Shown here: positions 30,181 to 64,000 of the stretch, piece by piece
How positions within the stretch are numbered: position 1 is the first letter of the stretch
Layout: the number at the start of each line of letters is the position of its first letter
NCBI GenBank assembly: GCA_002309855.1
Contig: DBYD01000029.1
Span: 10,521-74,520, forward strand
Origin: Bacteroidales bacterium UBA1195
GTDB taxonomy: Bacteria > Bacteroidota > Bacteroidia > Bacteroidales > WCHB1-69
Length of the DNA: 64,000 nucleotides
Reading direction: 5' to 3'
Program-made: the position numbers and the translations under genes
The notes under the pieces: model-generated
Databases searched by the model: none
Seen by the model: the letters and a program-made list of their open reading frames with translations, nothing else
Told to the model about the DNA's origin: nothing

Positions 30181-33100
30181 TTACCGTACAATGTTCATTT
30201 TCCTTACCTGTTGCCGGCCGTCGTATTCCATGCGGTAGTAGTATAGGCCGTCTGCCCATCCCTCGGTGCTGATGCTGACGGTGTTCTCACCGGCCTGCGC
30301 CTGGATGCGCCTGCGGTTGATCAGCTGCCCGTTGGCGGAGAGCACGGATATTGTCACCTCGCCACCCTGCGGTAGCGTGAACGGTATGGCGGTCATGTTG
30401 GAGGCGGGGTTGGGTATGTTCTGCCCAAGCCGCCAGTCCATACGTCTTGCAATGCGGATGCCGGTGGTGTCGGTTCCGGTGGTGTCGGTTCCGGTTGTGT
30501 CCGTTGTGTCCGGCACATTGACCTTTCCGGTGAGGGAGATGCTGTTGTCACCGGTGGCGGCATCGCAGGGGAGCAGCGCCTCCAGCCTGAAACTGAAGGT
30601 GGGGTTCTCCTTGGTTGCGAATGGCACCACGAAGGGCTGTGAGAGCTGTTGTGTCACGGAGTCGCCGGCCTTGATGTGCGTGCGCAGCGTGTCCGCGAGC
30701 AGGGCCTGCCCGTTGGCGTACATGCGCAGGACAACCCTGTCCACAGGCACGTTGCCCTTGTTCGTGACCGTGGCTTTGATCTGCAGTTGGTCATCACCGC
30801 TGTACAGTGTTATGCTGTCGATGCCGGAGACGGCCGCCAGCGCGATGTCCTGGCTTATGGATATGGATCCGCGTGCGGTGTCGTTGGTGGGGTCGTCATC
30901 AGGTGTGGCGAGGTGCCCCGTGAAGCTGTATGCACCTTCGGCGGAGAGGTCGAGCGCGGTGGTGACGGTGACGGTGTCGGAGCCGTTGCCCGGTATCGTG
31001 GTGCGGTATGGCAGCGCGAAGTTGCGGCTCGCCGCCCCGCTCACCTGCACCATGACGGTGTCGTCCACGGCTGCTGCAGCCGCTGTCTTGTTCTCCACGA
31101 CCATCCGCAGCGTCAGGTTCTGCAGGCTGCATGCGGAGAGTTTGTCAATGTCGGGGAGCAGCAGGCTTGCGGCGAGGTCGCGCCGTGCGGAGATGCGGAC
31201 GCGGTCGATGCGCTGCCCGGCGCCTCCTGCCACGCCCTCAAGCACGATGCAGAGGCACTTCGAGGAGGTGAACCTGTCAAGCTGGTATTCGTATGGCTGC
31301 CATCCCGCTGTGGCCGCTGCCGCGCAGAGCCGTCCGAGGACGGTGTATGTAGCGCCTCCGTCGGTTGTGGCTTTGACGATGAGCGAGTCACCCTGGTTCT
31401 TGCCGTTGTGGTGCGCGTACCAGAGTGTGAGCTTGGGCTGCACCGCCTGGTAAACGGCGACGGAGTTGAGGATGGCCGCGGTCCTGGCCCCGGTCTGGCT
31501 CCCGCCCTCAAGCGTCAGGCATCCGTTGCCGAATGCGGACGCGGGCGTGCCGGTCGTCGCGCATCTCCACTTGAGGCTGCCGCTGATGCACTCCTGCACC
31601 AGCTCCTGTGGCATGGCTGAGAAGTCGGCGTCGAAGGGGAGACTGACGCGGTAGGCGTTGTACTCCATGGATATGGTGTCGTTGGTGGGGTTGTGGTCGG
31701 CGGTGTCGGAGAGGGTGACGCGGATCTTATAGATGCCGCCGTTCGCCGTGTTGAGCCTCATCGGGCGGAACTTGCCGCTCTGTGCGGGGTCGAGCTTGCC
31801 CTGCCTGATGGTGGTGTCTTTGGAGAGGCTCACCGCCCCTGTGACCGTGACGCGGATCTTCAGCGGTGACTTGGCGAAATCTGCGGCGATGTTGCCGATG
31901 TTGGAGATGGTCACCTCGATGTCGGTGAAGTCACCGTGGCAGGCGACGGCTGATGTCGGGTCTGGGTTCACGAAGGCCACTGCTACAAGGTCGGCCTCCA
32001 GCTTAAGATTCCCGCTGTAGCAGCCCATGGTGGTGACGGTGTTGCGGGTTTTGCCGAGGATGTCCCTTGTGACGTTGTTGAGGCGGTTGCAGGCGAATGC
32101 GCTGTAGTCCTTCAGCTCGAGGCTTGTCGCCTGCTGCACGAACTGCGGCTGCACGGCGACGGAGTGCGCGTCCTGCCCGGTGTTGCTCCTCCAGTCCGCC
32201 AATGTGGCTATGGCCTTACCGAAGTATCCGACCATGTTCCGGGCGTGGTAGTTGTTGTAGTCGAGCACGTAGTAGCTGGATATGGACATGGGCACCTTCT
32301 CGATGTATATGGGATATGCTGTTGCACCCTCCGCCACCAGCAGGTTGTTGAGGAGGTTGAAGGGCTGCTTGCCGCTGTTGTTGTAGAGTCTGACGGCGTA
32401 GGCGTTGCCCTTGTCGCACCTCACGAGGACGCTGTTGTGGGCGATGTCCCATTCCTGGTATGGGTCGGTGAGTGTTATTCCGTATGCGAACTTGGTGCCG
32501 GTGAGTGTTATCTCGGAGTTGGAGAGCAGCCCCTTCGCGCTGGTGTTGATGTAGGTCGACAGGACGATGCCGTACACCCCTGTCGCCTCTGCGCGGACGC
32601 GGTTTGCGTCGATTGCGTCGATGTCGTTGTAGGAGTGGAACCAGAGGCCGCAGTACTCGTCGGCGCCCTTGCGCCCCGTGATGTCGTTGGCGCGGACGCT
32701 CCTGTAGTGGGCGTAGCTTTCGCTGTAGAGGCCGTATGCGGCGGCCTCCTTCAAGGTGTTGCTGTCGATGGTGAGCGATGCGGACGGCATGTTGGTTGTG
32801 GAGCCTGCCATGCACGCCATGTGGATGTTGTATGCGCCTCCCTCAATCCTGTTGCAGACAAGGCGGACATCCTGCATGAACAGGGTGCTGCCGGTGGGGT
32901 TGTTGTACCTGACGGCGGCCTCGGTCTTGACGGCGGTGATGGAGGCCTGTATGTCGCAGTTGCGGATGAGTATGTTGCGGACCATGCCTTCGAATGCAAC
33001 GCCGCACTCCGCCTTGGATGTGTTGCCAAAGGCCACCCCGTCGAAGATCCAGTGCATGGCGTTCTTGAGGGTGGCTCCGTTGGTGCCGTTGTCGAAGCGG

Positions 33101-36100
33101 ACGGTTGCTCCCTTGTCGGCGGTGATGCGGATGGTGCTGGTGGCGCTTGAGCCCGGCACGGAGTCGGCGATGGAGAGTGCGGGGTACTGTCCGGAGCGGA
33201 ACATTAGCGTTACCGCACCTCCGATGCCGCAGTGTGTCATGATGGTGTAGGCTTCGTCAAAGGAGGCGAAGTCGGGGCTGGTGCCGCCGACGGTGTATGT
33301 CCCTTTCATGGGGCTGCCGCAGATGAACTCCTGCATGCGGATGGTGTCGTTGTTGGGGTTGGGGTCTTTGTCCTGGTTGGGCTGGTACACCCATGCGATG
33401 ATGCTTATCTGTTTTCCGCCAGGGGCGTTCACGCTGCCGAGTGTTACGGTGTCGCTGCTGCCGGAGGTGAGCAGGCCGCTCCAGCTCTTCGGGGTCTGTG
33501 CGGTCCCGTTCACGCTCCAACCGATTACTGCTGACTTCAAATCATCGTCGCCGAGGTTGGTGAGGGTGACCTTGACCGGACTACTCTGCCCGCCCACAAT
33601 CTGTGTGCCCGCGAACTCGCCCAACGAGGCGTCCAGTTTGGCCAATTTGCCCGTGTAGGCACCCATTCCTGTGATCTTTTTGCGGAGCGAATCCTCCACA
33701 TCGCGGAGGATGCCCATGTTCGGCACCATGAAAAGCGTATAATCTTTCAGTTGCAGCCCTTTGGTCACATCCACGAATCCCGGGTTCGTGGAGAGACTGT
33801 GAGAATTGTCGTTTGTGGTTGATTGCAGCGTCTTAAGGTCGCTGATGATGGTGGTTCCGATGACGGCGATGTCCTTGCCCTGGTTCCAGTAGTTGTTGTA
33901 GTCTGTCCGGACATTTGGCAGCGCGTCCGCCGCAATGACAAGCGGAAACTGGTTGTTGCCGTCGCAGGCGGCCACCATGTTGCCGTAGGCCTCCACGTCA
34001 GAGGTGGCTCCCGTGATTGAGAGGTCGTGCACCCCCACGGTGTAGTTTGTGGTGTATGCGGCCTTGATGGTGTTGTAGATGCTGTTGTGGATGAACCGCG
34101 CCTTGGTGCCGCCCATCTGCACCACACGGCCGGTGCCCTGGCCGACCCGCCATCCGCCGCTCACCTTTCCAAGGATGACATTGTTGGCGATAAGGGTCTT
34201 CCCTCCGTTGAGGCTGGTGGTGTTTGAAACATTGAACACCACGCCGGTGGGGGCCGCGTCACCCATGAGGCTCATGTTGACGAAGTTGCCGTATACGCTG
34301 TCGCAGGTGGTCTGGTTCAGGGCCACGCCGAACGAGTTCTGGTTTATTTTCTTACGCACAAGGCAGGTGTTGAAGCAGAAGCTGACGCTGTCGGCATATT
34401 CGATGCCGAAAAGGCCGTCGTATGTCTCGACAATCAGGTTGCTGTCCACACGCATGCCGTGGAAGCGGCTGGTGGCGGTTCCGCGCAGACGGTTGCGGCA
34501 ACCTCCGGAGATGGTGTTGCCTATCAGGTGGAAGTTGCGCACAAGCGTGGTGATGGTGTTGTCCCCCTTGCCGATGCAGGAATTTGATCCGGCGGTTGCG
34601 GAGACCGGGGTCAGCAGGTTGCAGCGGTAGAAGGTGACATTTTCGGTCGGGCCTGCGAAGTACACCGCATGTCCGCTCCCGGTGTTGTTAATCGTGATGT
34701 AACTGAATGTCATGTTGCTGGTGCTGTCCAACTGGACCGCTCCGTTGGTTCCGCTGTAGTTGAAGGTGACACTGTCGCGGTTTTTGGCCTTGGAGGTGAT
34801 TGTCAGCCGGTATCCGTTCATGAAGCCGGTGTTGATTCTGATCGGGGTCGAGCCCAAGTTGTAGGTTCCCTTTTCAAAAGTCAGGGTGATGTCCCCGCCC
34901 GCGCCGCAGGCCTCAATGCCCTGGATGGCGTCGGCAAGGCTTTTGTACTGGCTGTTCGGGCCGACATTGTATGTGCCGGAGGAGGCCGAGCTGCAGCCGA
35001 GCGAAATCCGACGCAGCGTGTCGTCATTCACTGCCTTGTCCACCACATTGTTCGGCATCTTTATCCATACGGTCACCGTGTCGTAGGTGTTCATCCGGTG
35101 CATGTATGTGCCGAGCGTTATGGTGTCAATAAAGTCGCAGGGCAGGTTGCCGGTGTATTTTTTCGAGCCCTGGTACACGCCGTTGAGCGACCAGTGCAGT
35201 TCCGCCGACTTCAGGTTGTTCAGACCCTTGTTCTTGAAGCTCACCTGCACGGTCTGCGGGTTGGGAATGGAGACCCGTCCCGGCTTGTCAATTGAATGCA
35301 TTGCGACGGAGTTGCTGTCGAAACCGCCCGGATATTTCACGTAGAATCCGGCGTTGGCCTTGGCGTTGTTGCCGAAGGTGTCGCGTCCGATGATGTAGTA
35401 CTGAACGCTTGTGCCGAAATACTGCTGCGGGATGGTGGCCGTCCACATCGAGTCGCCCGCCGTGGCTTTCATCCTGATGGAGTCATGCTTGCTCTTGCCG
35501 CTGTATAGCGTGACGGTGTGCAGGTATGGAGTGAGGATTGGACCGTTTGTCCGTGTGGCCACCTTTGCGTTGACAACGAAGGGTCCGGTTGTGAACACCG
35601 TGTCGGCGATGTTGGAGGTGAATGCCACCACCGGCGGCTGTATGGCGTGCGCGGCGCAGAGTAGCTGCACATCGTCCACATACCATCCGGCTGCAATGTA
35701 GGAACCCATATAGCTTCCTTTCCTGATTATGAATTTGAAGCGTACTTCGGAGTAGCCAGCGTAGTTGCTCATGTCGAAAATCTCCTCCTTCCACCATCCG
35801 CTGGCAGGCTGGGCTAAGGTGTCGTTGGCCTTCCATTCGGTGTAGGAGCTATGGTCGAAGGCGAGGTTGGCCTTGTAGCCGGTGAACTTGCCCTTGTATG
35901 CATCGTTGGGTATCGGCCTCCATTTGTAGTTGACACCCAATCCCTTCTCCTGATACATGACCTGGCAGATGTCACTGGGCAGCACTTTGCATATATGGCT
36001 GAATTTAAGAATCACATATTCATATTGCTGGCAGTCGAAATAGGGAGTGACCAGTTCCACCGTATCACCGGCGGAATAGGGGACGTAGCCGTGCGCCGCG

Positions 36101-36303
36101 TATGATGCGGAGACAACCAGCCCCTTTTCCGTGCGCCAGCTGGGTGCCATTGTGGAAAAGGCCGGCTGCACCGACCAGCCCTGCGGGGTGTTCTTGCCGA
36201 AGGTCTCGTTGCAGACGTAGGTGCCTTGTGCCTGCGCAGCCATGATGGCGGTTGCGAGCATCATCGGCAAAACGGCTTTTCTGAATATGTCTAAAATGTT
36301 CAT
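30181..36303 (-). CDS. Giant T9SS cargo protein, paralog A (2040 aa from the ATG at 36303). Modules: choice-of-anchor-J/MAM-like N-domain, CARDB-like Ig modules, two beta-helix regions, a second MAM-like domain, type-A CTD.
   Basis: Signal peptide MNILDIFRKAVLPMMLATAIMAAQAQG. Beta-helix rungs of about 22-25 aa. CARDB-like LTNLGDDDLKSAVIGWSVNG. C-terminus GQNIPNPASNMTAIPF...GLYYYRMEYDGRQQVRKMNIVR. The track ORF start at 36330 is a TTG extension. Confidence 0.9.
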   Translation of the reverse strand: MNILDIFRKAVLPMMLATAIMAAQAQGTYVCNETFGKNTPQGWSVQPAFSTMAPSWRTEKGLVVSASYAAHGYVPYSAGDTVELVTPYFDCQQYEYVILKFSHICKVLPSDICQVMYQEKGLGVNYKWRPIPNDAYKGKFTGYKANLAFDHSSYTEWKANDTLAQPASGWWKEEIFDMSNYAGYSEVRFKFIIRKGSYMGSYIAAGWYVDDVQLLCAAHAIQPPVVAFTSNIADTVFTTGPFVVNAKVATRTNGPILTPYLHTVTLYSGKSKHDSIRMKATAGDSMWTATIPQQYFGTSVQYYIIGRDTFGNNAKANAGFYVKYPGGFDSNSVAMHSIDKPGRVSIPNPQTVQVSFKNKGLNNLKSAELHWSLNGVYQGSKKYTGNLPCDFIDTITLGTYMHRMNTYDTVTVWIKMPNNVVDKAVNDDTLRRISLGCSSASSGTYNVGPNSQYKSLADAIQGIEACGAGGDITLTFEKGTYNLGSTPIRINTGFMNGYRLTITSKAKNRDSVTFNYSGTNGAVQLDSTSNMTFSYITINNTGSGHAVYFAGPTENVTFYRCNLLTPVSATAGSNSCIGKGDNTITTLVRNFHLIGNTISGGCRNRLRGTATSRFHGMRVDSNLIVETYDGLFGIEYADSVSFCFNTCLVRKKINQNSFGVALNQTTCDSVYGNFVNMSLMGDAAPTGVVFNVSNTTSLNGGKTLIANNVILGKVSGGWRVGQGTGRVVQMGGTKARFIHNSIYNTIKAAYTTNYTVGVHDLSITGATSDVEAYGNMVAACDGNNQFPLVIAADALPNVRTDYNNYWNQGKDIAVIGTTIISDLKTLQSTTNDNSHSLSTNPGFVDVTKGLQLKDYTLFMVPNMGILRDVEDSLRKKITGMGAYTGKLAKLDASLGEFAGTQIVGGQSSPVKVTLTNLGDDDLKSAVIGWSVNGTAQTPKSWSGLLTSGSSDTVTLGSVNAPGGKQISIIAWVYQPNQDKDPNPNNDTIRMQEFICGSPMKGTYTVGGTSPDFASFDEAYTIMTHCGIGGAVTLMFRSGQYPALSIADSVPGSSATSTIRITADKGATVRFDNGTNGATLKNAMHWIFDGVAFGNTSKAECGVAFEGMVRNILIRNCDIQASITAVKTEAAVRYNNPTGSTLFMQDVRLVCNRIEGGAYNIHMACMAGSTTNMPSASLTIDSNTLKEAAAYGLYSESYAHYRSVRANDITGRKGADEYCGLWFHSYNDIDAIDANRVRAEATGVYGIVLSTYINTSAKGLLSNSEITLTGTKFAYGITLTDPYQEWDIAHNSVLVRCDKGNAYAVRLYNNSGKQPFNLLNNLLVAEGATAYPIYIEKVPMSISSYYVLDYNNYHARNMVGYFGKAIATLADWRSNTGQDAHSVAVQPQFVQQATSLELKDYSAFACNRLNNVTRDILGKTRNTVTTMGCYSGNLKLEADLVAVAFVNPDPTSAVACHGDFTDIEVTISNIGNIAADFAKSPLKIRVTVTGAVSLSKDTTIRQGKLDPAQSGKFRPMRLNTANGGIYKIRVTLSDTADHNPTNDTISMEYNAYRVSLPFDADFSAMPQELVQECISGSLKWRCATTGTPASAFGNGCLTLEGGSQTGARTAAILNSVAVYQAVQPKLTLWYAHHNGKNQGDSLIVKATTDGGATYTVLGRLCAAAATAGWQPYEYQLDRFTSSKCLCIVLEGVAGGAGQRIDRVRISARRDLAASLLLPDIDKLSACSLQNLTLRMVVENKTAAAAAVDDTVMVQVSGAASRNFALPYRTTIPGNGSDTVTVTTALDLSAEGAYSFTGHLATPDDDPTNDTARGSISISQDIALAAVSGIDSITLYSGDDQLQIKATVTNKGNVPVDRVVLRMYANGQALLADTLRTHIKAGDSVTQQLSQPFVVPFATKENPTFSFRLEALLPCDAATGDNSISLTGKVNVPDTTDTTGTDTTGTDTTGIRIARRMDWRLGQNIPNPASNMTAIPFTLPQGGEVTISVLSANGQLINRRRIQAQAGENTVSISTEGWADGLYYYRMEYDGRQQVRKMNIVR
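30461..30514 (-). repeat. 15-bp tandem repeat (about 3.5 copies) encoding the DTT(D/G)T linker immediately before the CTD of paralog A
   Basis: CCGGTGGTGTCGGTT x2, then the degenerate CCGGTTGTGTCCGTT. It translates on the minus strand to PDTTDTTGTDTTGTDTTG. Paralog B has a shorter variant at 36720-36764. Confidence 0.85.
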
Positions 36304-36346
36304 AATGATAATTTTAAAGATTAATCCCAAATTTAAAACGAATTTG

Positions 36347-36354
36347 CAAATATA
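36347..36354 (-). promoter_or_regulatory. Candidate -7 promoter box (TATATTTG on the minus strand) of paralog A
   Basis: TAnnTTTG match 44 nt upstream of the ATG. The identical sequence context GCAAATATA recurs upstream of B and C. Confidence 0.5.
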
Positions 36355-36394
36355 CTAAAAAAAAAAAGACGGAATGAAAACCCCGTCTTTTTTA
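36355..36394 (-). terminator. Candidate rho-independent terminator of paralog B
   Basis: On the minus strand the stem AGACGG / CCGTCT is followed by a T12 run, located between the B stop and the A promoter. Confidence 0.5.
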
Positions 36395-36439: not shown

Positions 36440-39400
36440 TTACCGTACAATGTTCATTTTCCTGACCTGTTGCCGGCCGTTGTATTCCATGCGGTAGTAG
36501 TATAGGCCGTCGGCCCATCCCTCGGTGCTGATGCTGACGGTGTTCTCGCCAGCCTGCGCCTGGATGCGCCTGCGGTGAACCAGCTGCCCGTTGGCGGAGA
36601 GCACGGATATTGTCACCTCGCCACCCTGCGGTAGCGTGAACGGTATGGCGGTCATGTTGGAGGCGGGGTTGGGTATGTTCTGCCCAAGCCGCCAGTCCAT
36701 ACGTTTTGCAATGCGGATGCCGGTGGTGTCAACATTGTTGGTGTCGGTTCCGGTGGTGTCCGGCACGTTGACCTTTCCGGTGAGGGCTATGCTGTTGTCA
36801 CCGGTGGCGGCGTCGCATGGGAGCAGCGCCTCCAGCCTGAAGCCGAAGGTGGGGTTCTCCTTGGTTGCGGATGGCACCACGAAGGGCTGTGAGAGCTGTT
36901 GTGTCACGGAGTCGCCGGCCTTGATGTGCGTGCGCAGTGTGTCCGCGAGCAGGGCCTGCCCGTTGGCGTACATGCGCAGGACCACCCTGTCCACCGGTAC
37001 GGTGCCTTTGTTTTTGACCGTGGCTTTGATCTGCAGTTGGTCATTACCGCTGTACAGTGTCGAGCTGTCGATGCCGCTGACAGCCGCCAGCGCGATGTTC
37101 TGGTTTATGGTGATGGCGCCGCGTGCGGTGTCGTTGGTGGGGTCGTCGTCGATAGTGTGCAGGACGGCCTCAAACTTGTGGGTCCCCTCTGCGGAGAGGT
37201 CGAGCGAGTCAGTTACAAGCAGGGTGTCGGAGGCGTTGCCCGGCAGGAATCCCTGGCACAGCCGCCTGAACAGCTGGTTCGAGGCGCCGCTTACGTTCAC
37301 GCTGAGATAGCAGCTTACGGTAGCCTCGGAGGGGATGAGGTTTTTGAGAACCACCCTGACCGGGAGGTTCTGCAGGCTGCAGGCTGAGAGCTTGTCCAAA
37401 TCGGGGAGCAGCAGCTGGATGGAGATGTCGTTGCGGCCCGATATCAGGATGCGGTCGATCTGCTGTTCGGCGCCTCCCGCGACGGTCTCCATCACGATGC
37501 AGAGGCATTGTGCGTTGCTGAATTTGTCCAACGGGTATTCGTAGAGCTTCCATCCTGCGGTTGCCGCGGCGGCGCAGAGCCGTCCGAGGACGGTGTAGGT
37601 GGCCCCGCCATCGGTTGTGGCCTTTATGATGAGCGAGTCACCCTGGTTATTGCCGTTGTGGTGCGCGTACCAGAGGCTCAGCTTCGGTTCGGTGGTGTTC
37701 TGTATGTTGATGGAATTGAGGATGATGTTGGTGCGGTCGCCGGTGTGCCCCCTGCCATCAAAGAGCAGGCATCCCTTGCCGAAGGCGGGCTGCAGGGAAC
37801 CGGATGAGGCCACCTTCCAGAGGCTGCCGCCCTTGCGGCACTCCTGCAGCAGCTCCTGCGGCATGGCGGAGAGGTATGTGTCGAAGGGGAGGTACACACG
37901 GTAGGTGTTGTAGTCCATGGAGATGGTGTCGTTGGCCGGGTTGTGGTCTGCGGTGTCGGAGAGTATGACCCTGATGTGTTGGATGGCTGAAATGGTGCTG
38001 ATCCGGAGCAGTCGGAACCTGCCGCTCTGTGCGGGGTCGAGCTTGCCCTGCCGGATGATGGTGTCCTTTAAGATGGAGTTAAGAGGGATGCCGGTGACCT
38101 CAATCCTCACCTTCAGCGGTGACTTGGCGAAATCCGCCGCGATGTTGCCGATGTTGGAGATGGTCACCTCGATGTCGGTGAAGTCACCGTGGCAGGCGAC
38201 GGCTGATGTCGGGTCTGGGTTCACGAAGGCCACTGCTGCGAGGTCGGCCTCCAGCTTAAGGTTCCCGCTGTAGCAGCCCATGGTGGTGACGGTGTTGCGC
38301 GCCTTGCCGAGGATGTCCCTTGTGACGTTGTTGAGGCGGTTGCAGGCGAAGGCACTGTAGTCCTTAAGTTCGAGGCTTGTGGCCTGCTGCGCGAACTGCG
38401 GCTGCACGGCCACGGAGTGCGCGTCCTGCCCAGTGTTGCTCCTCCAGTCCGCCAATGTGGCTATGGCCTTGCCGAAGTATCCCACCATGTTCTGGGCGAA
38501 GTAGTTGTTGTAGTCGAGCACATAGTAGCTGGATATGGACATGGGCACCTTCTCAATGTATATGGGATATGCGGTGGCACCCTCCGCCACCAGCAGGTTG
38601 TTGAGGAGGTTGAAGGGCTGCTTGCCGCTGTTGTTGTAGAGCCGGACGGCGTAGGCGTTGCCCTTGTCACACCTCACGAGGACGCTGTTGTGTGCGATGT
38701 CCCACTCCTGGTATGGGTCGGTGAGTGTGATGCCGTATGCGAACTTGGTGCCGGTGAGGGTTATCTCGGAGTTGGAGAGCAGCCCCTTCGCGCTGGTGTT
38801 TATTGATGTCGAGAGGACGATGCCGTACACCCCTGTCGCCTCGGCGCGGACGCGGTTTGCGTCAAGGGCGTCGATGTCGTTGTAGGAGTGGAACCAGAGG
38901 CCGCAGTACTCGTCGGCGCCCTTGCGCCCGGTCACGTCGTTGGCGCGGACGCTCTTGTAGTGGGCGTAGCTTTCGCTGTAGAGGCCGTATGCGGCGGCCT
39001 CCTTCATTATGTTGCTGTCGATGGTGAGCGATGCGGACGGCATGTTGGTTGTGGAGCCTGCCATGCACGCCATGTGGATGTTGTATGCGCCGCCCTCAAT
39101 CCTGTTGCCGATGAGGCGGACCTCCTGCATGAACAGGGTGCTGCCGGTGGGGTTGTTGTACCTGACTGCGGCTTCTGTCTTGACAGCGGTGTTGGAGGCC
39201 TGTATGTCGCAGTTGCGGATGAGAATGTTGCGGACCATCCCCTCGAAGGCAACGCCGCAATCGGCCTTGGATGTGTTGCCGAAGGCGACCCCGTCGAAGA
39301 TCCAGTGCATGGCGTTCTTGAGTGTCGCTCCGTTGGTGCCGTTGTCGAAACGGACGGTTGCACCCTTGTCGGCGGTGATGCGGATTGTGCTGGCTGCGCT

Positions 39401-42646: not shown

Positions 42647-42689
42647 AATGATAATTTTAAATATTAATCCCAAATTTAAAACGAATTTG

Positions 42690-42697
42690 CAAATATA
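42690..42697 (-). promoter_or_regulatory. Candidate -7 promoter box (TATATTTG on the minus strand) of paralog B
   Basis: A duplicate of the paralog A promoter context. Confidence 0.5.
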
Positions 42698-43271: not shown

Positions 43272-43287
43272 GGTTGCATGACAAATC

Positions 43288-43317
43288 TGTAGAGACGCAA
43301 AATTTTGCGTCTCTACA
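43288..43317. repeat. Perfect 30-nt REP-like palindrome TGTAGAGACGCAAAA|TTTTGCGTCTCTACA, probably also a bidirectional terminator
   Basis: Read directly from the sequence. It lies between the convergent DUF2147 and LRR genes and overlaps the LRR stop codon (43313-43315). Confidence 0.85.
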
Positions 43318-52700: not shown

Positions 52701-52708
52701 CAAATATA
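52701..52708 (-). promoter_or_regulatory. Candidate -7 promoter box (TATATTTG on the minus strand) of paralog C
   Basis: TAnnTTTG match 38 nt upstream of the start codon. Confidence 0.45.
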
Positions 52709-53343: not shown

Positions 53344-53443
53344 GTTGCAAAAATAACAACATTTTGCATACCATCCGCCTTTTTTTGCAAAAAAAATGGG
53401 CGGGTAATCCCGCCCATTGGCATACATCAATTGTACAATTAAT

Positions 53444-56400: not shown

Positions 56401-58811
56401 TGGTGCTTCCGGCCATGTAGTACATGTGTATGTTGGCCACGCCGCCCCGTATGTTGTTGTTGACAAACCGTACATTGACAGGATAATTGGTGCTGCCGCT
56501 GGCGTTGTGGAAGTATACTGACATTGACGTGGATGTGGCGGTTGTGGAGGCGTTGATGCCGCACTCCTGGAAAAGGATGTTGCTGTTGGCACCCTCCATC
56601 AGAACGCCGTATAGCCCGTTGGAGGTGTTGCCGAAGTTCACCCCCCTTGAAAATCCAGTTGGATGTGTTCTGCAGGGTGACGCCTGCCGCCGCGCCTCCG
56701 CCGTCAAAGGTGACCTTGGCCCCGCTCTGCGGCATCACGGTGATGGTGTTGGTGGTGTCCGCTCCGGGGATTTCGCCGATAATTCTGATTCCGCTGTAAT
56801 TTCCAGCCGCAACAAGCAGCCGCACCGGAGCCTTCACGCCGCATTGTGTCAGAACGTGTATGACCTCGTTCATGTCCTGGAAATCCTGGTTCGGCCCTAT
56901 CTTGTAGTCGCCGGAAAGTATCTCCTTGCAGATGTATTTCTCCATGGTGAGGGTGTCGTTGCCCTTGAAGCCGTCCTTGCCGCTGTTCGGGTCGGTCACC
57001 CATGCCTTGATGCGGTAGGTGGAGCCAAGCACGGTCTTGAAGGTGCCAACCTTCACGCTGTCTTTTTCACCTAATGCCAGTTTGCCTTTCCAGGGGAACT
57101 TCTGCAGTGTGCCGTCATCCCACATGATGGTGGCCGAGTAGAGGGTGTCCATTCCGGCGTTCATGATGGTGAGGTAGAGGTCGCTGGTGCCGCTGGTGCT
57201 GGCTGTGAAGTCGGTTTTGCCGAAATCGGTCAGTGCGGCGTCCAGCGCGGCGACGGTGTATGCGCCCATTGTGGTGATTTTTCCGCGTGCGATGCCCTGA
57301 TAGTCATCTGTCACACCGGGGTTGGGGACGATTGTGAAGGCTTTGTAGTTGACAAGGTTAAGACCCTCTGTCGGGTCGGCGAAGCCGGGGTTGGTCGAAA
57401 TGCTGCCCTTGTCGTTGATGAGGGTGAGCAGGTTGGCCAACGAGGTGACTGCGGTGCCGCTCTGGTAGGCGTAGTTGGTTCCGCCGTTCATGAAATAGAA
57501 GTTGTTGTATTCGGAAACAATTTTTCCTGCAGAGACAGTGGCCGCTGAAATGTTCATCACATGCTGGTTCTTGTCATCGTATGCTATCAGTTGGTTGCCG
57601 ACCAGATGCAGGTCGCAGGTGTCGCCGATACCAAGGACGTAAACTGTCTTGTTGTTGTTGCTGTTTGTCGGGGCGGAGGAGGTGCGCGCATTATAGACGC
57701 TGTTGAAATAGACATCGGCCTGCACCTTGGAAAGTGAGAGCACGCTGATGGATCCGGAGTTGTTCTTTACGTAGGAACTGTTGTCGTAGCTGAGTATGAC
57801 GTTGTTGGCAATCAGGATGCGCCCCGATTTGTTGGTGCCAGTCCTCTTGTTGACCACGCCGGAGACATTGATGCCCGCTCCGCCGTAGGTCGCGCCCTGG
57901 TTCATGAACGACACGAAGTTGCCGTAGACGCTGTCGCCCGTGATGGCCGAGAGCTGGATGCCTGGCGACCATGTGGAGGAGGTCTTATCCTTCACCATCA
58001 CATGGTTACGGTTGCAGGTCACACTGTCCGCCCTGTATATCATGATGCCGGCGGCGGTGTTGTCGAAGATGGTGTTGTCGTTGAAGACCAGCCCCTGCAT
58101 ACGGTGGGTTGTTGCCATGGGTATGACGTTGCGGCAGCCGTTGTCAATGTTGTTGCCGATAAAGCGGAGCCATTTCACGGTGGTGTCCACTCCATTGCCT
58201 CCGTTATTGTTGTCCTTCACCGAGGTGGAGCTTACAGGGTTGGTGGAGAGGGTCTGCATGCTTCCGCTTGTGGCGAAGGCTGTGCCGCTTGTACGTTTGA
58301 TGTTGCAGCGGTAGAAGGTCACATCCTCCATCGGGCCGTTTATGCAGATTGTGTGGCCGTTGGAGGTGCTGCTGTTATGGATGTTCAGATGGCTGAATGT
58401 GACGTGCTTGGTGTTGTTCACCAGGATGAATCCGATAAGTGCCGCGGAGGTGTTGTAGCTGAATGTCACGCTGTCGCGGTCTTTCGCCACCGATGTTATG
58501 GTCAGGTGGTCCTTGGATGTGAATTTTGCAGTATTTACATTCAGTGCCTTTGTGAATGTATAGGTGCCTGTTTCAAAGGCGATTGTGATTTGTCCTGTCA
58601 TTTTTCCGGCTGCAATTTCCGTCAGCAGCGAGTCGAATGAGGAGAAGGGCAGGTCAGCCTTGTTGGAACTGCCGATAATGATGGTCTTTTGCGCCCATGC
58701 CCCCGCCAAAGGGAGGAACAGGGAGAGCAAAACGATGGACAATCTTTTTGAAAAAATAGATAATGACCTCATAATAAATAAATTAATAATTTTTTTACTG
58801 TGAATATTCAT
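53444..58811 (-). pseudogene. Giant T9SS cargo gene, paralog D, interrupted by a +1 frameshift (it would encode about 1788 aa if one G were removed)
   Basis: Track ORFs 56223..58811 and 53444..56707 overlap. Homology to paralog C switches frame exactly at the G6 run: ...TLQNTSNWIFKG | VNFGNTSNGLYGVL... The total span of 5368 nt is 1 mod 3. The likely true start is MRSLSIF at 58772. Confidence 0.8.
56651..56656 (-). other. G6 homopolymer tract (C6 on the plus strand) at the frameshift site in paralog D
   Basis: The minus strand reads TTC AAG GGG GGT GAA (out of frame). With G5 it would read TTC AAG GGG GTG AAC TTC GGC, i.e. FKGVNFG, matching paralog C (FRGLNFG). Confidence 0.85.
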
Positions 58812-58815
58812 GTTG

Positions 58816-58823
58816 CAAATTTA
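58816..58823 (-). promoter_or_regulatory. Candidate -7 promoter box (TAAATTTG on the minus strand) of paralog D
   Basis: TAnnTTTG match upstream of the D start codons (58811 / 58772). Confidence 0.4.
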
Positions 58824-58977
58824 CAAAAAAAATTAAATGCTTTTTCCTTTGGTTCAGAAATACAGGACATTTTTTTTTACCCACATTCCGCAATCCGTAT
58901 TGCAAAATGTTGTATTTTTGCAAATCCGTTTTTACGGAAACGTTCATTCATTTTTTCACAACCCTAAAATAAAAAAA

Positions 58978-60027
58978 ATGGAATCAACTGAAAGAAACAA
59001 AAGAAAAAAGAATTCCAAAAATGAAGAAAAAAACAAGAAAAGGATGTATCTGAACCCCAAAGCCGACCTGACCTTCAAGAAAGTGTTCGGAGAACACAAG
59101 CATTTGATGATCAGTTTTCTGAATGCACTGCTCCCTCTCTCGGAGAAGGAACAGATTAGCAGTATTGAATACCTGACGCCGGAACTGATTCCGCAGACAC
59201 CGTTGCGCAAGTACAGCATAGTTGATGTGCGCTGCAAGGATGCGCAGGGCCGCCAGTTTTTGGTGGAGATGCAGATACACTGGGCTCCGGAATTCAAGAC
59301 CCGGGTTTTCTTCAATGCGGCAAAGGCCTACGTCCGTCAAGCCGACATGGGGGACAACTACCAGCTATTCCAGCCGGTCTGGTCCCTCAATCTGGTCAAT
59401 GAGGTGTTTGAACCGGACACACCGGACTATTATCATCATTACAAGGTGGTTAACATCAAGGATACGGACAAGGTGATAGAAGGCTTGCAGCTGGTGTTCG
59501 TGGAGTTGCCGAAATTCAAGCCGGGCGACAGCCATGTCAAGAAGATGCAGGAATTATGGCTGCGATTCATGACGGAGATTAACGAATCCACGCAGCGCGT
59601 CCCTGAGGAACTGACTTCAAATGCCGATGTTAAGGAGGCAATCATCCAGTTGCGGGAATCCGCCTTCAATGACGACGAACTTGCTGCATACGATTACTTT
59701 TGGGACGCAGTGAGACTGGAAAACGCCTTCGGAAAAAATGCCGAGGAAAGAGGCCTTGCAAAAGGTCTTGCAAAAGGCCATGCAGAAGGCCACGCAGAAG
59801 GTCTCGCAGAAGGTCTCGCGGAAGGCCGTGCAAAAGGTCTCGCGGAAGGCCGTGCGGAAGGCCGTGCGGAAGGTCTCGCGGAAGGCCGTGCAGAAGGTCT
59901 TGCGGAAGGAGAAAAAGCAGGGTTGGAGAAAGGTATCGAACAAACAAAACTGGAAATCATGAAAAGACTGAATGCGCTGGGACTGCCCGAAGATTTGATC
60001 AATAAGGCCATCGGCAACCGTATGTAG
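58978..60027 (+). CDS. Rpn-family recombination-promoting nuclease / PD-(D/E)XK putative transposase with a C-terminal (E/K)G(L/R/H)A repeat tail
   Basis: N-terminus YLNPKADLTFKKVFGEHKHLMISFLNALL. Nuclease core IVDVRCKDAQGRQFLVEMQ. The start is uncertain (ATG 58978 or 59044). The track start at 58837 is rejected. Confidence 0.85.
   Translation: MESTERNKRKKNSKNEEKNKKRMYLNPKADLTFKKVFGEHKHLMISFLNALLPLSEKEQISSIEYLTPELIPQTPLRKYSIVDVRCKDAQGRQFLVEMQIHWAPEFKTRVFFNAAKAYVRQADMGDNYQLFQPVWSLNLVNEVFEPDTPDYYHHYKVVNIKDTDKVIEGLQLVFVELPKFKPGDSHVKKMQELWLRFMTEINESTQRVPEELTSNADVKEAIIQLRESAFNDDELAAYDYFWDAVRLENAFGKNAEERGLAKGLAKGHAEGHAEGLAEGLAEGRAKGLAEGRAEGRAEGLAEGRAEGLAEGEKAGLEKGIEQTKLEIMKRLNALGLPEDLINKAIGNRM
59749..59908 (+). 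repeat. 12-nt periodic in-frame tandem repeat (about 13 units, GAAGG(Y)C(K)YGC(R)) encoding (A)(E/K)G(L/R/H)
   Basis: Read directly from the sequence. It translates to GLAKGLAKGHAEGHAEGLAEGLAEGRAKGLAEGRAEGRAEGLAEGRAEGLAEG. Confidence 0.85.
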
Positions 60028-60054: not shown

Positions 60055-60083
60055 AAAACGTATTACTGTTTTCCAAACGCCAA

Positions 60084-60120
60084 AAAAATGACCCACCGGA
60101 AATTCCGATGGGTCATTTTT
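60084..60120. terminator. Bidirectional hairpin terminator between Rpn (+) and paralog E (-)
   Basis: AAAAATGACCCACCGGA-AAT-TCCGATGGGTCATTTTT, with an A-run 5' and a T-run 3'. Confidence 0.65.
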
Positions 60121-60126
60121 AATAAC

Positions 60127-60154
60127 GTATAGACGGTGCATGCACCGTCTATAC
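60127..60154. repeat. Perfect 28-nt REP-like palindrome GTATAGACGGTGCA|TGCACCGTCTATAC
   Basis: Read directly from the sequence. It is a variant (GTATAGACG) of the GTAGAGACG family. Confidence 0.8.
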
Positions 60155-60166
60155 AAATTGTGATTA

Positions 60167-63100
60167 TTAACGGATATTCATTTTGCGTGTGATCCGTTGT
60201 CCGCAGTATTCCATGGTGTAATAATAGATACCTGCTGCCCAGTCGGCGGTGTTCAGTTCAAGGCTGTTGGCTCCGGCCTCACCCTGAATCTCCTGACGGT
60301 GGACAATCTGTCCGTTGGCGGTCATCACGCTGATGCGCACCTGGCCGGACTGCGGCAGGGTGAACGGTATGGCGGTCACCTCCGTGGCAGGGTTCGGGAT
60401 GTTCTGTCCCAGGCTCCAGACAAGCTCTTTCACATTGTGTATGCCAACCTTTTCAACACAGTCGAATGCTTTTTGCAAAGTGTCGTTGCTGCGCAAAGGA
60501 TCTTCAGCCACAGCCCCAACATATGCCTTGAGGATGTATTTGCCATCGTAGTTGGGCACTGTGTAGGTTTGGGTGAACTGCACGTTCCGGTTTTCACCGG
60601 CGGTCAGTCCGCTCACGGTCTCGCTGATTGTTTCAATCACCTGGTTGTTCCTGTCAATTACAGCCAAATACAGTTTGACTTGGGCAGCGGTGCAATTGCC
60701 TTTGTTGGTAATGCTTACCTTCGGCGAAATCTTGGTGTTGCCATCAGCAGGTGAGGTGGTTGTGATGTCCAGCACCTGTATGTCGGTGGTGTCGGGAACC
60801 TCAACCAGTCCGTTCACTCGCATGGTGTCGTTTGTATGGTCTGCATCGCAGCCGGAGGTGGCGGTTACTTCAACCGTGAAATTGGGATTGGTCTTGCTGG
60901 CAAAAGGCGCAGCAAAGCGCAGCACGTGGGTGTCGGAGTCACCGGGATTCAAAACGGCTGTAACAGTATCTTTGAGCACAACGGTTCCGTTTACTTTCAA
61001 CTGCGTGTAGTAGCGGCTCATCTGCATGGTACCGTTATTGGTGACGGTGGCATTGACAGCAAGAGCCGTGCCGGAGGTGTATGCGGTCGAACTGTTCAGG
61101 CCGGTGAGGCTGTTCAAACTGAGATCTCTCATAATCTGTAAGGAGGTGCGGATGGTATCGTTGGCGGCCACATCGTCCTGAGATTGCATCGAGAGTTGCA
61201 GATTATAGGCTCCATCAGCAGAAGGCACAAAGCTTCCGATGGTGATGGTGTCGCTTGCCTCGCCTGCCAGTACCTTATTATAAATATAGATGGCCTGCTG
61301 GTTGACAGCTCCGCCCACTTGCAGATGCAAAGTGTCTTTTGTCAGTGTCAGAGGCTGTTTGGTCTGGTTCGTAATAATAGCTTTGACAGCGACAGGATTG
61401 TTGCTGCAGGCATCGTATTTGGAAATGTCGACTGGCAGCATCGAGATGGCTGCATCCTGCAGGGCTGAGAGCCTGATGCGGTCGATCTGCTGGGCGATAC
61501 CGCCGGTGATGCCTTCAAATACAATGGAGAGGCACGGAGCGGTTGCAAACTTGCTCAGGTCATAACTGTATTCCTTCCAGCCTGCAGTGTTGCCTGCGGC
61601 GGCCAGCCTGCACAGAACAGTGAATGTCGCGCCACCGTCCGTGGAGACTTTAACAATCAGGGAGTCTCCCTGGTTCTTGCCGTTGGTGTGAGCATACCAG
61701 AATGTCAGTTTTGGCTGGGTGTAGCCGTCTATGTGGATGCCGTTGAAGGTGGCGTGGGCCACACTGCCCTTGTTGCTTCCGCTGCCAAGCATCATGATGC
61801 CTTTTCCGTAGACAGGGGCAGGGTTGCCGTTGCCGAACATGGTCCATTGGGCGTCGCCGCTGACAGTGCGGGTCACCATCTCTTTCGGTGCGGAGGTGAA
61901 GTCAACGTCATAGGGCAGTCCTATACGGTAAACCTTATAGGTGATGTTGGACTCGTTGTCGCTTGTGGTGTCGTCGGCCTTGCACTGCAGGGTCAGTTTT
62001 ACATTGTAAACACCGTCGGTGGTTGTCTGGAAGCTGCCCAGCGTGATGATTTCGCTGGATGTTCCCTTAAGACCGCCCTTCTGGAATGTGGTGTCGAAGT
62101 GTAATGTGGCCGCTCCGCTGATGTCAACGCTGATCTTCAGGTTGGCGGTGTCATAGCTGACCGATTTCATGCCACTGTTCTCCAACTCAATCGTAACAGG
62201 GACGCTGCTGCTGTAGCATACTGCGTCGTTTACAGCCTTGGGCGAAATCACCTCCTTGAATTTGAGGTTGGCCAGTTCATACATGTCGATGGAGTAGCAG
62301 CCCATCGGGGTCAGCTTGATCCTTGCCTTGTTGTTGATGTCCTTGCCGACCATTGTCAGGATGGCTGGGGAGCGGAACTGGAAGTAGCTGGTGAGCTGCA
62401 GGTCTTTTGTAAGGTTGGTGTAGGCTGGCAGTGTCTGCTGGCTGTTGGCATCCTGCATGGTCAATGACTGCAGTTGGGCGATGGTTGTTATCGCACTGCC
62501 GATATAGGCCACATTGCTCTTGGAATAGAGGTTGTTCCATTCCCTCACCCCGTAGGTGGCGCCTGCGCAGGAGGCGGTGCCGATTACGAGCGGGTAGCAG
62601 ATGGAGGCATCCGCGTAGATCAGATTGCGCGAGACGTTGACTTTGCACTTGCTGTTGGAATTGTACAGCTCCATTCCGTTGGCGTTGGCACCCTTGGAGT
62701 TGGCCTGCACGTAGATGCTGTTGTGGTGGATTTCCCAGTTGCCGTTGGGCTCGTTCTGGTAGATTCCGCACTGGGTGCTGCCGTTTCCGATAATCTTTAC
62801 TTCATTGTTGGTCATGTAGGCGGTGCGCTTTGTATAGTTGGCATCCTGGTTGCCCTTGATGAGGTAGAATCCGTAGGCTGCGCCGTCGTTGCTGATATGG
62901 ATACGGTTCTGTTCTATCTTGTCCCATACCGCGTAGTTTTCAGAATGAACGGCGGTGTAGTCCTTGCAGACGGAACGGTTGGTGATGGTGTTTCCGCACA
63001 GCTTTTTGATTGCGCCCAAGCCTTCGCTGTAAATGCCATAGGCGAAAGCCTTGCAGAGCGTGCTGGTCTCGATGTTGATGGAGGCCTTGTCCATCTGTGA

Positions 63101-64000
63101 CGGGTCACCTGCGGTGTTGGAGAGGTAGAAGTTGGCGAATCCTCCGGTGATGCGGCACTGCATGAAGGAAATCTGCTGCGGATAGTCCTTGCTCTTCTGC
63201 GGGTTGATGAACTCAATGGCGTTTGACTCGTTCTTAGTTGCGCTTTGGCTGGCGTGGATTGAGCAGTTGTAGAAGGCGATGTCCCTGTTGGTGCCCTTCA
63301 TCTGTATGCCGGTCAGTCCCCTCACGCTGTCACCAATGGAGAAATTGCTGAAAATCCAGTGCTTGGTATTGTCCAAAATCAGGGACGGGCCGTAACTGCC
63401 ATAGTTGATGGTGACGGTCAGGCCGGCATCCGGTGTTAAGGAGATGGTGTTCACACTGCTGCTGCCAGGGACGCTGTCAGACAATATCAGCTGGTTAAGG
63501 GTCAGAGGCATGCCGATGGAAAGTATGACCGCTCCGTTGACGCCGCAGGTGTTCAGTGCCTGCACCGCCTCCTCGATGGTGTTGAAGAGTGTCCTTGCAC
63601 CACCTGACGAGGCGACTGTGAGCGTGCCGGAGAGAGGTCCGTTGCAGGAGAAGAGTTTTGTCTCGATTGTGTCGTTGTGCAGGTTCCCGTCGATGAGGCT
63701 GTTCGGATTCTCAGTCCAGGCGACAAGGGCGATGAAGCGACGTGCTGCCGGGGTGGTGTTGCCGATGCAGACCACGGTGCTGTCACCGGCGGCCAGGGCA
63801 CCCTTCCAGTAGTAGGTCGTCTGCAGCACATTGGCGGATTTCCAGTGAACTTCCACCGATTTCAGGGTGTCGAGACCATTGTTGTACATGGTCACATAGA
63901 TGTTGCTCTGCTGTCCGCCGTTGAGGGTGGTGTTGGCGAAATCGAGCAGCGCCACATCCTCCTTGGCGATCACGTTCAGTTTTGTGGAAATGGTGTCGTT
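60167..64000 (-). CDS. Giant T9SS cargo protein, paralog E (5' end beyond the window; at least 1277 aa visible)
   Basis: The ORF stays open past 63973 to the window edge (...NDTISTKLNVIAKEDV). It has the same core module order as A-D. C-terminus GQNIPNPATEVTAIPFTLPQSGQVRIS...GIYYYTMEYCGQRITRKMNIR. Confidence 0.9.
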   Translation of the reverse strand, partial: NDTISTKLNVIAKEDVALLDFANTTLNGGQQSNIYVTMYNNGLDTLKSVEVHWKSANVLQTTYYWKGALAAGDSTVVCIGNTTPAARRFIALVAWTENPNSLIDGNLHNDTIETKLFSCNGPLSGTLTVASSGGARTLFNTIEEAVQALNTCGVNGAVILSIGMPLTLNQLILSDSVPGSSSVNTISLTPDAGLTVTINYGSYGPSLILDNTKHWIFSNFSIGDSVRGLTGIQMKGTNRDIAFYNCSIHASQSATKNESNAIEFINPQKSKDYPQQISFMQCRITGGFANFYLSNTAGDPSQMDKASINIETSTLCKAFAYGIYSEGLGAIKKLCGNTITNRSVCKDYTAVHSENYAVWDKIEQNRIHISNDGAAYGFYLIKGNQDANYTKRTAYMTNNEVKIIGNGSTQCGIYQNEPNGNWEIHHNSIYVQANSKGANANGMELYNSNSKCKVNVSRNLIYADASICYPLVIGTASCAGATYGVREWNNLYSKSNVAYIGSAITTIAQLQSLTMQDANSQQTLPAYTNLTKDLQLTSYFQFRSPAILTMVGKDINNKARIKLTPMGCYSIDMYELANLKFKEVISPKAVNDAVCYSSSVPVTIELENSGMKSVSYDTANLKISVDISGAATLHFDTTFQKGGLKGTSSEIITLGSFQTTTDGVYNVKLTLQCKADDTTSDNESNITYKVYRIGLPYDVDFTSAPKEMVTRTVSGDAQWTMFGNGNPAPVYGKGIMMLGSGSNKGSVAHATFNGIHIDGYTQPKLTFWYAHTNGKNQGDSLIVKVSTDGGATFTVLCRLAAAGNTAGWKEYSYDLSKFATAPCLSIVFEGITGGIAQQIDRIRLSALQDAAISMLPVDISKYDACSNNPVAVKAIITNQTKQPLTLTKDTLHLQVGGAVNQQAIYIYNKVLAGEASDTITIGSFVPSADGAYNLQLSMQSQDDVAANDTIRTSLQIMRDLSLNSLTGLNSSTAYTSGTALAVNATVTNNGTMQMSRYYTQLKVNGTVVLKDTVTAVLNPGDSDTHVLRFAAPFASKTNPNFTVEVTATSGCDADHTNDTMRVNGLVEVPDTTDIQVLDITTTSPADGNTKISPKVSITNKGNCTAAQVKLYLAVIDRNNQVIETISETVSGLTAGENRNVQFTQTYTVPNYDGKYILKAYVGAVAEDPLRSNDTLQKAFDCVEKVGIHNVKELVWSLGQNIPNPATEVTAIPFTLPQSGQVRISVMTANGQIVHRQEIQGEAGANSLELNTADWAAGIYYYTMEYCGQRITRKMNIR

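Follow-up and report, generated by a model that had tools for sequence, protein, structure and literature searches.

The closest described systems to the locus analysed here, an array of five giant paralogous genes (A to E) on the minus strand of a 64,000-nucleotide (nt) stretch of DNA from Bacteroidales bacterium UBA1195 (assembly GCA_002309855.1, contig DBYD01000029.1, positions 10,521 to 74,520; in the following the window), are found among large bacterial surface proteins. BspA, TfsA and TfsB of Tannerella forsythia are type IX secretion system (T9SS) cargo with a type A C-terminal sorting domain (CTD). HagA and the gingipains RgpA and Kgp of Porphyromonas gingivalis are T9SS type A cargo as well, and their jelly-roll "cleaved adhesin" modules are repeated, common to paralogous genes and homogenised by recombination. 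SprB and RemA of Flavobacterium johnsoniae are giant (up to about 6500 amino acids, aa) repetitive T9SS-secreted surface adhesins, RemA having a lectin domain. The chlamydial Pmp proteins, finally, are paralogous beta-helix adhesins which are often encoded in tandem, diversified by recombination and in some cases switched off by poly-G frameshifts; as type V autotransporters they carry a beta-barrel at the C-terminus, and their repeats are GGA(I/L/V) and FxxN.

Like the Tannerella proteins, A to E are large and modular, with a Sec signal peptide, a type A CTD of about 80 aa and abundant O-glycosylation sequons, and a gene for a BspA-type leucine-rich repeat (LRR) cargo protein (X) lies inside the array. 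They differ from BspA, TfsA and TfsB in that their family combines a head jelly-roll, beta-helix/CARDB cassettes and a MAM-like domain, reaches 2000-4700 aa and has 8 to 14 or more paralogs in some genomes. The likeness to the gingipains, whose Kgp K domain is matched by our MAM-like profile, is one of fold or superfamily only: gingipains carry a protease domain and have neither beta-helix nor CARDB cassettes. SprB has a type B CTD and a PorP/SprF partner, but here all CTDs are of type A and no sprF-like neighbour is seen; the repeat types differ from those of SprB and RemA, and there is no evidence of gliding here. As in the Pmp family one gene of the array (D) is broken in a G run, although six G are short for a phase-variation tract. 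Membership in the Pmp family was considered and rejected, as the counts of GGA(I/L/V) and FxxN are about those of shuffled sequence, the C-terminus is a T9SS CTD and there is no sequence relationship. The module types themselves are those of surface proteins with MAM, NF038128 or PF20773 and CARDB or PbH1 (NosD/Beta_helix) domains; unlike in these, the window copies stay below threshold, the head has no curated model and the fixed grammar in which the modules are combined is undescribed. A to E belong to the class of T9SS type A cargo. They resemble the Pmp, HagA/gingipain and SprB/RemA groups in their way of working, as paralogous repertoires of surface proteins, and are not members of any of them. 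What is new is this family, whose head is unannotated and whose grammar is strict, together with the strain-level dynamics of the locus; the kind of system is not.

We hold it rather probable, judging from sequence and predicted structure, that A to E form a variable repertoire of non-enzymatic, T9SS-anchored adhesin or coat fibres. An earlier note on this DNA, made from the letters and their open reading frames (ORFs), had suggested a "variable surface-coat or adhesin system". Our results support this as an inference, and the outcomes of the checks which the note proposed were favourable to it or neutral.

Organisation, promoters and sorting signals of the array

According to the ORF list the five co-oriented minus-strand paralogs cover together 85% of the region 30181-64000 (Table 1). 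The earlier note had five such genes filling most of the last 34 kb. Orientation and lengths agree with the ORFs (2431 aa for C only if counted from the TTG) and the coverage is right, but four unrelated genes interspersed among the paralogs had been overlooked, and the array is therefore not pure: X and a DUF2147 gene lie between C and B, an Amidase_2 ORF between D and C, and a PDDEXK_2 gene between E and D. No remnants of paralogs were found in the intergenic regions of the array. All-against-all BLASTP gives 77% identity for A and B over their full length, 83% for C and D over 1067 aa, and 34-43% over more than 1000 aa for the remaining pairs; the N-terminal part of D is 56% identical to B (about 670 aa) and 36% identical to A (about 680 aa). 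As judged from these alignments, the paralogy among A to E is far beyond chance. A, B, C and what is visible of E are uninterrupted frames of 1277-2429 codons. A 97% identical ortholog of E, itself truncated, indicates a total length of at least 1810 aa for this protein and contains, upstream of the part visible here, two more CARDB domains and at least one more helix.

The genes A, B, C and D were claimed to possess a TAnnTTTG box each, and this proved correct. The motif is the -7 element of Bacteroidetes promoters. In A, B and C it precedes the ATG by exactly 43 nt, and the same spacing applies to D if translation starts at M14. Because the minus strand of the window contains just 19 such motifs in all, four boxes at one fixed distance from four paralog starts are not a matter of chance. 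The upstream segment of A (36328-36393) recurs as a 90% identical copy upstream of B. No box is present in the 72-nt spacer upstream of X, and X may for this reason be co-transcribed with C. Around the four promoters no convincing inverted repeats of the kind flanking invertible promoters were found; the spaces between the genes are, moreover, too short. Long, perfect or near-perfect palindromes lie just 3' of the stop codons of E (60084-60154) and X (43287-43321) and are probably intrinsic terminators.

All five C-termini match the type A sorting domain model TIGR04183 with 37.9-39.7 bits (cut-off 23) and PF18962 with 33-41 bits (cut-off 27), in line with what had been stated before. A type B CTD (CHU_C/TIGR04131) was not found in the array; A and C show only Por_Secre_tail and all five are of type A. 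By inspection, the signal peptides of A, B, C and D consist of a charged n-region, a hydrophobic core and a cleavage site of the A-x-A type, and residues 3-23 of A are modelled as a helix by AlphaFold. In total at least nine CTD-bearing genes lie within the 64-kb window, at least four of them besides A to E.

Each of the four full-length proteins contains 26-38 copies of the Bacteroidetes O-glycosylation sequon D-(S/T)-(A/I/L/M/T/V), compared with 8-10 in shuffled sequence; for the partial E the numbers are 17 and about 5. In A to E and X the sequon is enriched 3-4 fold. The linkers preceding the CTD in A and B consist of DTT repeats. From this composition the giant proteins are probably O-glycosylated.

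Modules, predicted folds and the enzyme question

Module order was assigned with family-internal hidden Markov models (HMMs) built from 120 homologs. A common core is present in all five proteins: CARDB, a right-handed beta-helix of about 440 aa, CARDB, a MAM/choice-of-anchor-J-type jelly-roll, two to three CARDB/Ig modules and the type A CTD. Beyond this core, A and B have a head jelly-roll, Ig, CARDB and one helix; D is extended by one helix cassette and C by two. In full, A and B read signal peptide, head, Ig, CARDB, helix, CARDB, helix, CARDB, MAM-like, CARDB, Ig, linker, CTD; C reads signal peptide, helix, CARDB, CARDB, helix, CARDB, helix, CARDB, MAM-like, three CARDB/Ig, CTD; a repaired D reads signal peptide, helix, CARDB, helix, CARDB, MAM-like, three CARDB/Ig, CTD; and the visible part of E reads CARDB, helix, CARDB, MAM-like, three CARDB/Ig, CTD. 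Both the shared core order and the differing N-terminal extensions are those of the earlier note. AlphaFold2 models of A, calculated from alignments of 42 (residues 1-889) and 46 sequences (residues 880-2040), reach a predicted local distance difference test (pLDDT) score of 84.4 and 85.6, respectively, and give the same domain boundaries as the HMMs; the only places of low confidence are the junction at the signal peptide and, ahead of the CTD, the DTT-rich linker.

CARDB (PF07705, cut-off 22.7) is matched by A with 29.2 bits and by C with 38.1 bits, so that the CARDB and Por_Secre_tail searches which the earlier note had proposed both end above the curated cut-offs. When ten modules of A were searched separately against Pfam and NCBIfam, just sub-threshold CARDB and Beta_helix matches were obtained in addition to the CTD. 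Searches of the Protein Data Bank (PDB) with the entire sequences of A and C gave no match. By the family HMMs each protein has 4-6 CARDB copies, and the "Ig" modules following the MAM-like domain are relatives of CARDB (igP2 versus cardbA, hhalign 99.5%). Foldseek searches of the PDB with the two models of A, which are multi-domain models, returned only generic adhesin-, receptor- or S-layer-like multi-Ig/jelly-roll ectodomains with TM-scores below 0.3.

Each helix of about 440 aa starts with an N-cap helix and ends with the C-cap motif DYNNYY...DIxGxxR...MGAY. Between them an Asn ladder (N184, 208, 236, 264, 292, 322, 352) is invariant in 12 diverse cassettes; its seven rungs are spaced by 24-30 aa, and the period of 22-25 aa given previously has to be corrected. 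AlphaFold models these regions with pLDDT above 90, short periodic strands, N-cap helix and C-cap. The assignment as beta-helix-like holds by the ladder and by relatives that match Beta_helix with up to 1.1e-10 (3 of 12 family cassettes; NosD 2/12, DUF1565 1/12), many homologs having precomputed PF13229 and PF05048 matches, but not by the window copies themselves: the core helix of A remains with 17.3 bits (E 0.0038) below the PF13229 gathering cut-off of 25.9, and the first helix of A is unmatched. A viral Foldseek library, which gave no greater specificity, lists pectate-lyase-superfamily and right-handed beta-helix proteins with low TM-scores.

PL1, PL3, PL9, GH28 and related families have the beta-helix as their fold, and the five proteins might accordingly be imagined as surface polysaccharide-degrading enzymes (pectate or rhamnogalacturonan lyases or other beta-helix glycanases) in which CARDB serves as spacer, the MAM-like domain, resembling a carbohydrate-binding module (CBM), binds the substrate and the paralogs cover different plant fibres. 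We regard this as unlikely. The best PDB sequence match of the helix profile is indeed a pectate lyase, but with E = 0.03; an alpha-1,3-glucanase is another weak match (E 0.32), and no window module matches an enzyme family of Pfam or NCBIfam. Invariant D, E, K, R or H residues are absent from the helix body, in the 12 cassettes as well as in 46 core helices, where just the Asn ladder is kept; in agreement with this the earlier note recognised no catalytic motif and no characterised family. With two to three helices per protein and a freely varying copy number the helices would also be unusual catalytic domains, and neither SusC/SusD nor other carbohydrate-active enzyme neighbours were found, although the habitat (rumen, gut or digester), the resemblance of the jelly-roll to the xylan-binding CBM4-2 and a distant relative with a pectinesterase domain (P0119) would suit such enzymes. 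Use of the T9SS for multi-modular glycanases by rumen Bacteroidetes is known (PMC5831590) and likewise counts for them. Because there is no enzyme match and no invariant charged residue and because the number of helices varies from 0 to 5, we read the helices as structural rods or binding surfaces and not as catalytic domains, which is an argument from absence.

The internal jelly-roll of about 155 aa shows the motifs quoted for it in the earlier note. Its designation as MAM/choice-of-anchor-J-like holds for the family, where 13 of 18 copies match NF038128 (best 2e-8), nine Pfam MAM (PF00629, best 5.6e-5) and four InhA-like_MAM (4.7e-9), but the copy of A in the window has no Pfam or NCBIfam match at E <= 1. 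In the PDB the profile finds the MAM domain of InhA (4yu5, 5e-5), CBM4-2 of a xylanase (1e-3) and the adhesin domain of gingipain K (3m1h, 0.016), further matches being reelin subrepeats and the neuropilin MAM domain. The head, also called choice-of-anchor-J-like before, deserves this name only loosely: hhalign shows a distant relationship with the internal jelly-roll (86.6%, E 4.5e-6), but just one of 20 family members matches NF038128 (1.3e-3) and five match an M36 peptidase model. No curated Pfam or NCBIfam model matches the window copy of the head, which has no PDB sequence match either. Among relatives with down to 31% identity the residues F101, H103, I104, C105, K106, D111 and E174 (F-x-H-I-C-K...D motif) are invariant, and so are the aromatic residues W56, W128, Y136, Y154, W157, W170 and W207. 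Foldseek places the N-terminal model of A next to ligand-binding jelly-rolls, namely the ligand-binding domain of Eph receptors, RPTPmu-MAM and meprin ectodomains. From these fold relatives and invariant aromatics both jelly-rolls are probably ligand-binding modules, presumably for glycans.

These conserved, apparently ligand-binding jelly-rolls do not suit a second alternative, namely that A to E build a structural protective coat (S-layer-like, or a shield against phages or protozoal grazing) whose variation is driven by phages or predators. The Foldseek match to the S-layer protein 7ptp and the sequon enrichment, which is also known from the T9SS-secreted, O-glycosylated S-layer proteins TfsA and TfsB of Tannerella, would fit a coat, as would the very large family with many copies per genome and the gene turnover between strains. 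However, evidence of lattice-forming contacts is lacking, and several paralogs with separate promoters suit a repertoire better than a single lattice. A coat of this kind therefore appears improbable to us.

If A to E are adhesin or coat fibres, each gene would be transcribed from its own Bacteroidetes-type promoter and the product exported by Sec via its signal peptide. The T9SS would then recognise the CTD, which, going by what is known of this system, would be cleaved while the protein is attached covalently to the surface at its new C-terminus. The mature protein would be an elongated, probably O-glycosylated fibre in which rigid beta-helix rods alternate with CARDB/Ig spacers, with a CARDB stalk and the MAM/CBM-like jelly-roll near the anchored end, the helices distal to it and, in A and B, the aromatic-rich family-specific head at the distal tip. 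As adhesins or lectin-like proteins, such fibres may have host glycans, plant fibre or other microbes as their targets.

Recombination, strain variation and the frameshift in D

The recombination signatures to which the earlier note refers are real. A and B have 86-88% nucleotide identity except for about 1 kb coding for the first helix, where identity drops to 52-63%. The first helix cassette of B (39893-41323) is not alignable with that of A at the nucleotide level and is 75% identical to that of D. D is chimeric: its 5' helix cassette is B-like and its 3' part of 3.3 kb is C-like (84.5% identity to C), with the switch at about 56750-56450.

For strain comparison the window was set against three other assemblies of the same species (L001, L002 and L082; 92-96% nucleotide identity). 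C, the DUF2147 gene and B are kept in all three, and A is visible in L001 and L082, the two in which the sequence runs far enough. D and E are missing upstream of C in all three, and thiamine genes or a 255-aa gene are found there instead. The slot between C and DUF2147, occupied by X in the window, contains a nitroreductase gene in L001, nothing in L002, and a Fic gene together with a 3101-aa paralog of the family (P0008) in L082; on this gene content it is a strain-variable insertion point. Invariance of the locus across related genomes, which the earlier note had named as a counter-indication, is thus not observed, as gene content differs among the four same-species assemblies.

Between-strain orthologs have an overall dN/dS of 0.14-0.20 (0.03 for the neighbouring kinase), which shows purifying selection, and the genes are therefore functional; positive selection is not indicated by these whole-gene values, well below 1. 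dS is patchy, with 0.05-0.2 in most segments and 0.4-0.9 elsewhere, and the strain differences fall in patches where dN and dS rise together. Such patches are typical of imported segments. In L001 (10001-22452) the 3' 3.2 kb of the A-like gene and of the B-like gene are 100% identical, both being A-type there, and part of the corresponding A/B stretch in the window falls to 69-74% identity. The L001 stretch indicates a recent gene conversion or possibly an assembly collapse. Mosaic identity, patchy dS and this stretch point to cassette exchange and gene conversion, and the comparisons show three sources of diversity: whole genes are duplicated and lost, helix-CARDB cassettes are gained or lost, and paralogs exchange sequence by homologous recombination or gene conversion.

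The PDDEXK_2 gene, which contains an imperfect internal tandem repeat at about 59751-59909, belongs to a segment (amidase, D, PDDEXK_2, E) without counterpart upstream of C in the related strains; it may mark, or have mediated, a rearrangement.

D is interrupted by one extra G in a G6 run (56641-56646, minus strand), reading TTCAAGGGGGGTGAAC on that strand. With one G deleted, ...NWIFKG is followed by VNFGNTSNGLYGV... exactly as in the paralogs, and a single frame of 1788 aa results, or of 1775 aa from M14 (58772), which is the likelier start (MRSLSIF...) and gives a canonical signal peptide. The run lies within the zone of about 300 nt where B-like sequence gives way to C-like sequence in D. 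At this site the paralogs have G4, and G6 is the sole G or C homopolymer of six or more in the five genes, which contain no other candidate for a phase-variable homopolymer. Orthologs of D (P0243 and P0244, 89-94% identical) stop short of the frameshift site and are uninformative on the extra G. The frameshift may be an error of sequencing, the mark of a real pseudogene or a switch between on and off.

One might take the broken D, the incomplete E and the susceptibility of repeats to assembly error as signs that the whole array is decaying or artefactual, consisting of pseudogenes or mis-assembled repeats. This is most improbable and already largely refuted by the intact frames of A, B, C and visible E, the dN/dS of 0.14-0.20, the order C-B-A recovered in three independent assemblies, the conserved promoter spacing and the orthologs of D elsewhere.

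A bolder and rather doubtful idea, which we nevertheless put forward, joins two elements. The head, which bears an invariant H-x-C-K...D motif and aromatic loops, would be a new kind of module for ligand binding or even catalysis, and the cluster would be a dedicated surface-variation system of a gut commensal, in which cassettes and cores are actively exchanged among tandem paralogs. The exchange would possibly be aided by the adjacent Rpn-type PD-(D/E)XK nuclease, with copies silenced by frameshifts and the outermost layer re-tiled. Such a system, if true, would be comparable in function to the antigenic-variation families of pathogens, but built on T9SS cargo.

Several points weigh against the reading of A to E as a repertoire of non-enzymatic fibres. 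The beta-helix is also the scaffold of many polysaccharide lyases and hydrolases, and lineage-specific catalytic residues could escape a divergent alignment. The top PDB matches of Foldseek with the multi-domain models include no beta-helix protein, because multi-Ig matches dominate, and the window copies of helix, head and MAM-like module lie below the curated Pfam/NCBIfam thresholds. T9SS machinery genes (por, spr, gld) are not seen within the window. Furthermore D may be a pseudogene, and the identical stretch in L001 could be an assembly collapse.

The wider family and other features of the window

A search with A yielded 125 clusters at 90% identity, all from uncultured Bacteroidales and mostly of 2000-3400 aa (some partial), the best names among them being "right-handed parallel beta-helix repeat-containing" and "T9SS type A sorting domain-containing" protein. 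The head profile retrieves 1394 representative clusters (50% identity, E <= 1e-3), 349 of them with E <= 1e-30; the head is always found at residues 15-230, in proteins of up to 4737 aa. Using the head alignment to search species-representative genomes, we confirmed 188 loci. Among the loci listed nearly all belong to Bacteroidales metagenome-assembled genomes (MAGs) from rumen, deer, buffalo, termite and digester; some single MAGs hold 8 to 14 of them or more. The common grammar of 78 loci from other genomes is head-Ig-CARDB-(helix-CARDB)n-MAM-CARDB-CTD with n = 0-5, and in 16 of these 78 loci with family ORFs a second family ORF, mostly a co-oriented neighbour, lies within 10 kb.

We found no description of this family in the literature. 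It is without a name, a curated model of its head or a known function, and yet uncultured Bacteroidales of rumen, gut and digester spend tens of kilobases per genome on it. If these proteins make up the outermost adhesive layer, they are prime candidates for attachment to plant fibre, partners or host surfaces, and also candidate phage receptors and a candidate cause of strain-level differences. If they are enzymes instead, they represent a large untapped reservoir of beta-helix glycanases. In either case their fixed grammar and cassette exchange offer a tractable model of giant surface protein evolution.

Table 1. Features of the array and of the remaining window (nt positions of the window; positions marked aa are residues of protein A)
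Feature	Position	Strand	Remarks
Gene A	30181-36303	-	2040 aa
Gene B	36440-42646	-	2068 aa, architecture as in A
Gene C	45368-52657	-	2429 aa from ATG (2431 from upstream TTG), without head
Gene D	53444-58811	-	two ORFs (56223-58811 and 53444-56707), +1 frameshift
Gene E	60167-64000	-	3' 1277 codons only, 5' part outside the window
Gene X	43313-45295	-	660 aa, BspA-type LRR_5 and own type A CTD; unrelated T9SS cargo, between C and B
DUF2147 gene	42816-43271	+	between X and B; same position in all related assemblies
Amidase_2 ORF	52774-53430	-	N-acetylmuramoyl-L-alanine amidase-like, between D and C
PDDEXK_2 gene	58837-60027	+	PD-(D/E)XK nuclease family transposase of Rpn type, divergent from D and located between E and D; E 2.7e-41
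Histidine kinase gene	28675-30174	-	HisKA and HATPase_c; starts 6 nt past the A stop codon
Type A CTD of A	30190-30429	-	TIGR04183, PF18962
Type A CTD of B	36449-36688	-	TIGR04183
Type A CTD of C	45377-45616	-	TIGR04183
Type A CTD of D	53453-53692	-	TIGR04183
Type A CTD of E	60173-60412	-	TIGR04183
MAM/choice-of-anchor-J-type jelly-roll of A	31165-31632	-	
MAM-like module of B	37415-37882	-	
MAM-like module of C	46661-47131	-	
MAM-like module of D	54737-55207	-	
MAM-like module of E	61442-61909	-	
Head domain of A	35650-36225	-	family-specific N-terminal jelly-roll
Head domain of B	41993-42568	-	
Core right-handed beta-helix of A	32002-33309	-	N-cap helix, Asn ladder, C-cap DYNNYY...DIxGxxR...MGAY
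TAnnTTTG boxes upstream of A	36347-36354 and 36328-36335	-	
Terminator-like hairpin and T-run	36362-36393	-	between B and A
TAnnTTTG boxes upstream of B	42690-42697 and 42671-42678	-	
Promoter box of C	52701-52708	-	
Promoter box of D	58816-58823	-	
Signal peptide	aa 1-26		
Head jelly-roll	aa 27-218		
Ig	aa 227-322		
CARDB	aa 346-435		
First beta-helix	aa 442-888		
CARDB	aa 901-997		
Core beta-helix	aa 999-1434		
CARDB	aa 1453-1552		
MAM/choice-of-anchor-J-like	aa 1558-1713		
CARDB	aa 1723-1820		
Ig	aa 1846-1922		
DTT-rich linker	aa 1932-1954		
Type A CTD	aa 1959-2038		
DUF7619/PPC protein gene	5243-9769	+	1508 aa, type A CTD; T9SS cargo
IgGFc_binding and PKD protein gene	22321-24765	-	814 aa, type B (CHU_C) CTD; T9SS cargo
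LRR_5 and Flg_new_2 protein gene	24782-26056	-	424 aa, type A CTD; T9SS cargo

The histidine kinase gene next to A may be co-transcribed with it. It adjoins the A-like gene in L001 too (96.8% nucleotide identity, dN/dS 0.03), where an AraC-type gene follows; a response regulator is not seen beside it in the window. Between the LRR cargo gene and this kinase lie two minus-strand ORFs of 258 and 544 aa without Pfam match (26078-28654), in a segment of unusually low G+C content (39%, against 53-62% around it). The window as a whole is rich in secreted surface proteins.

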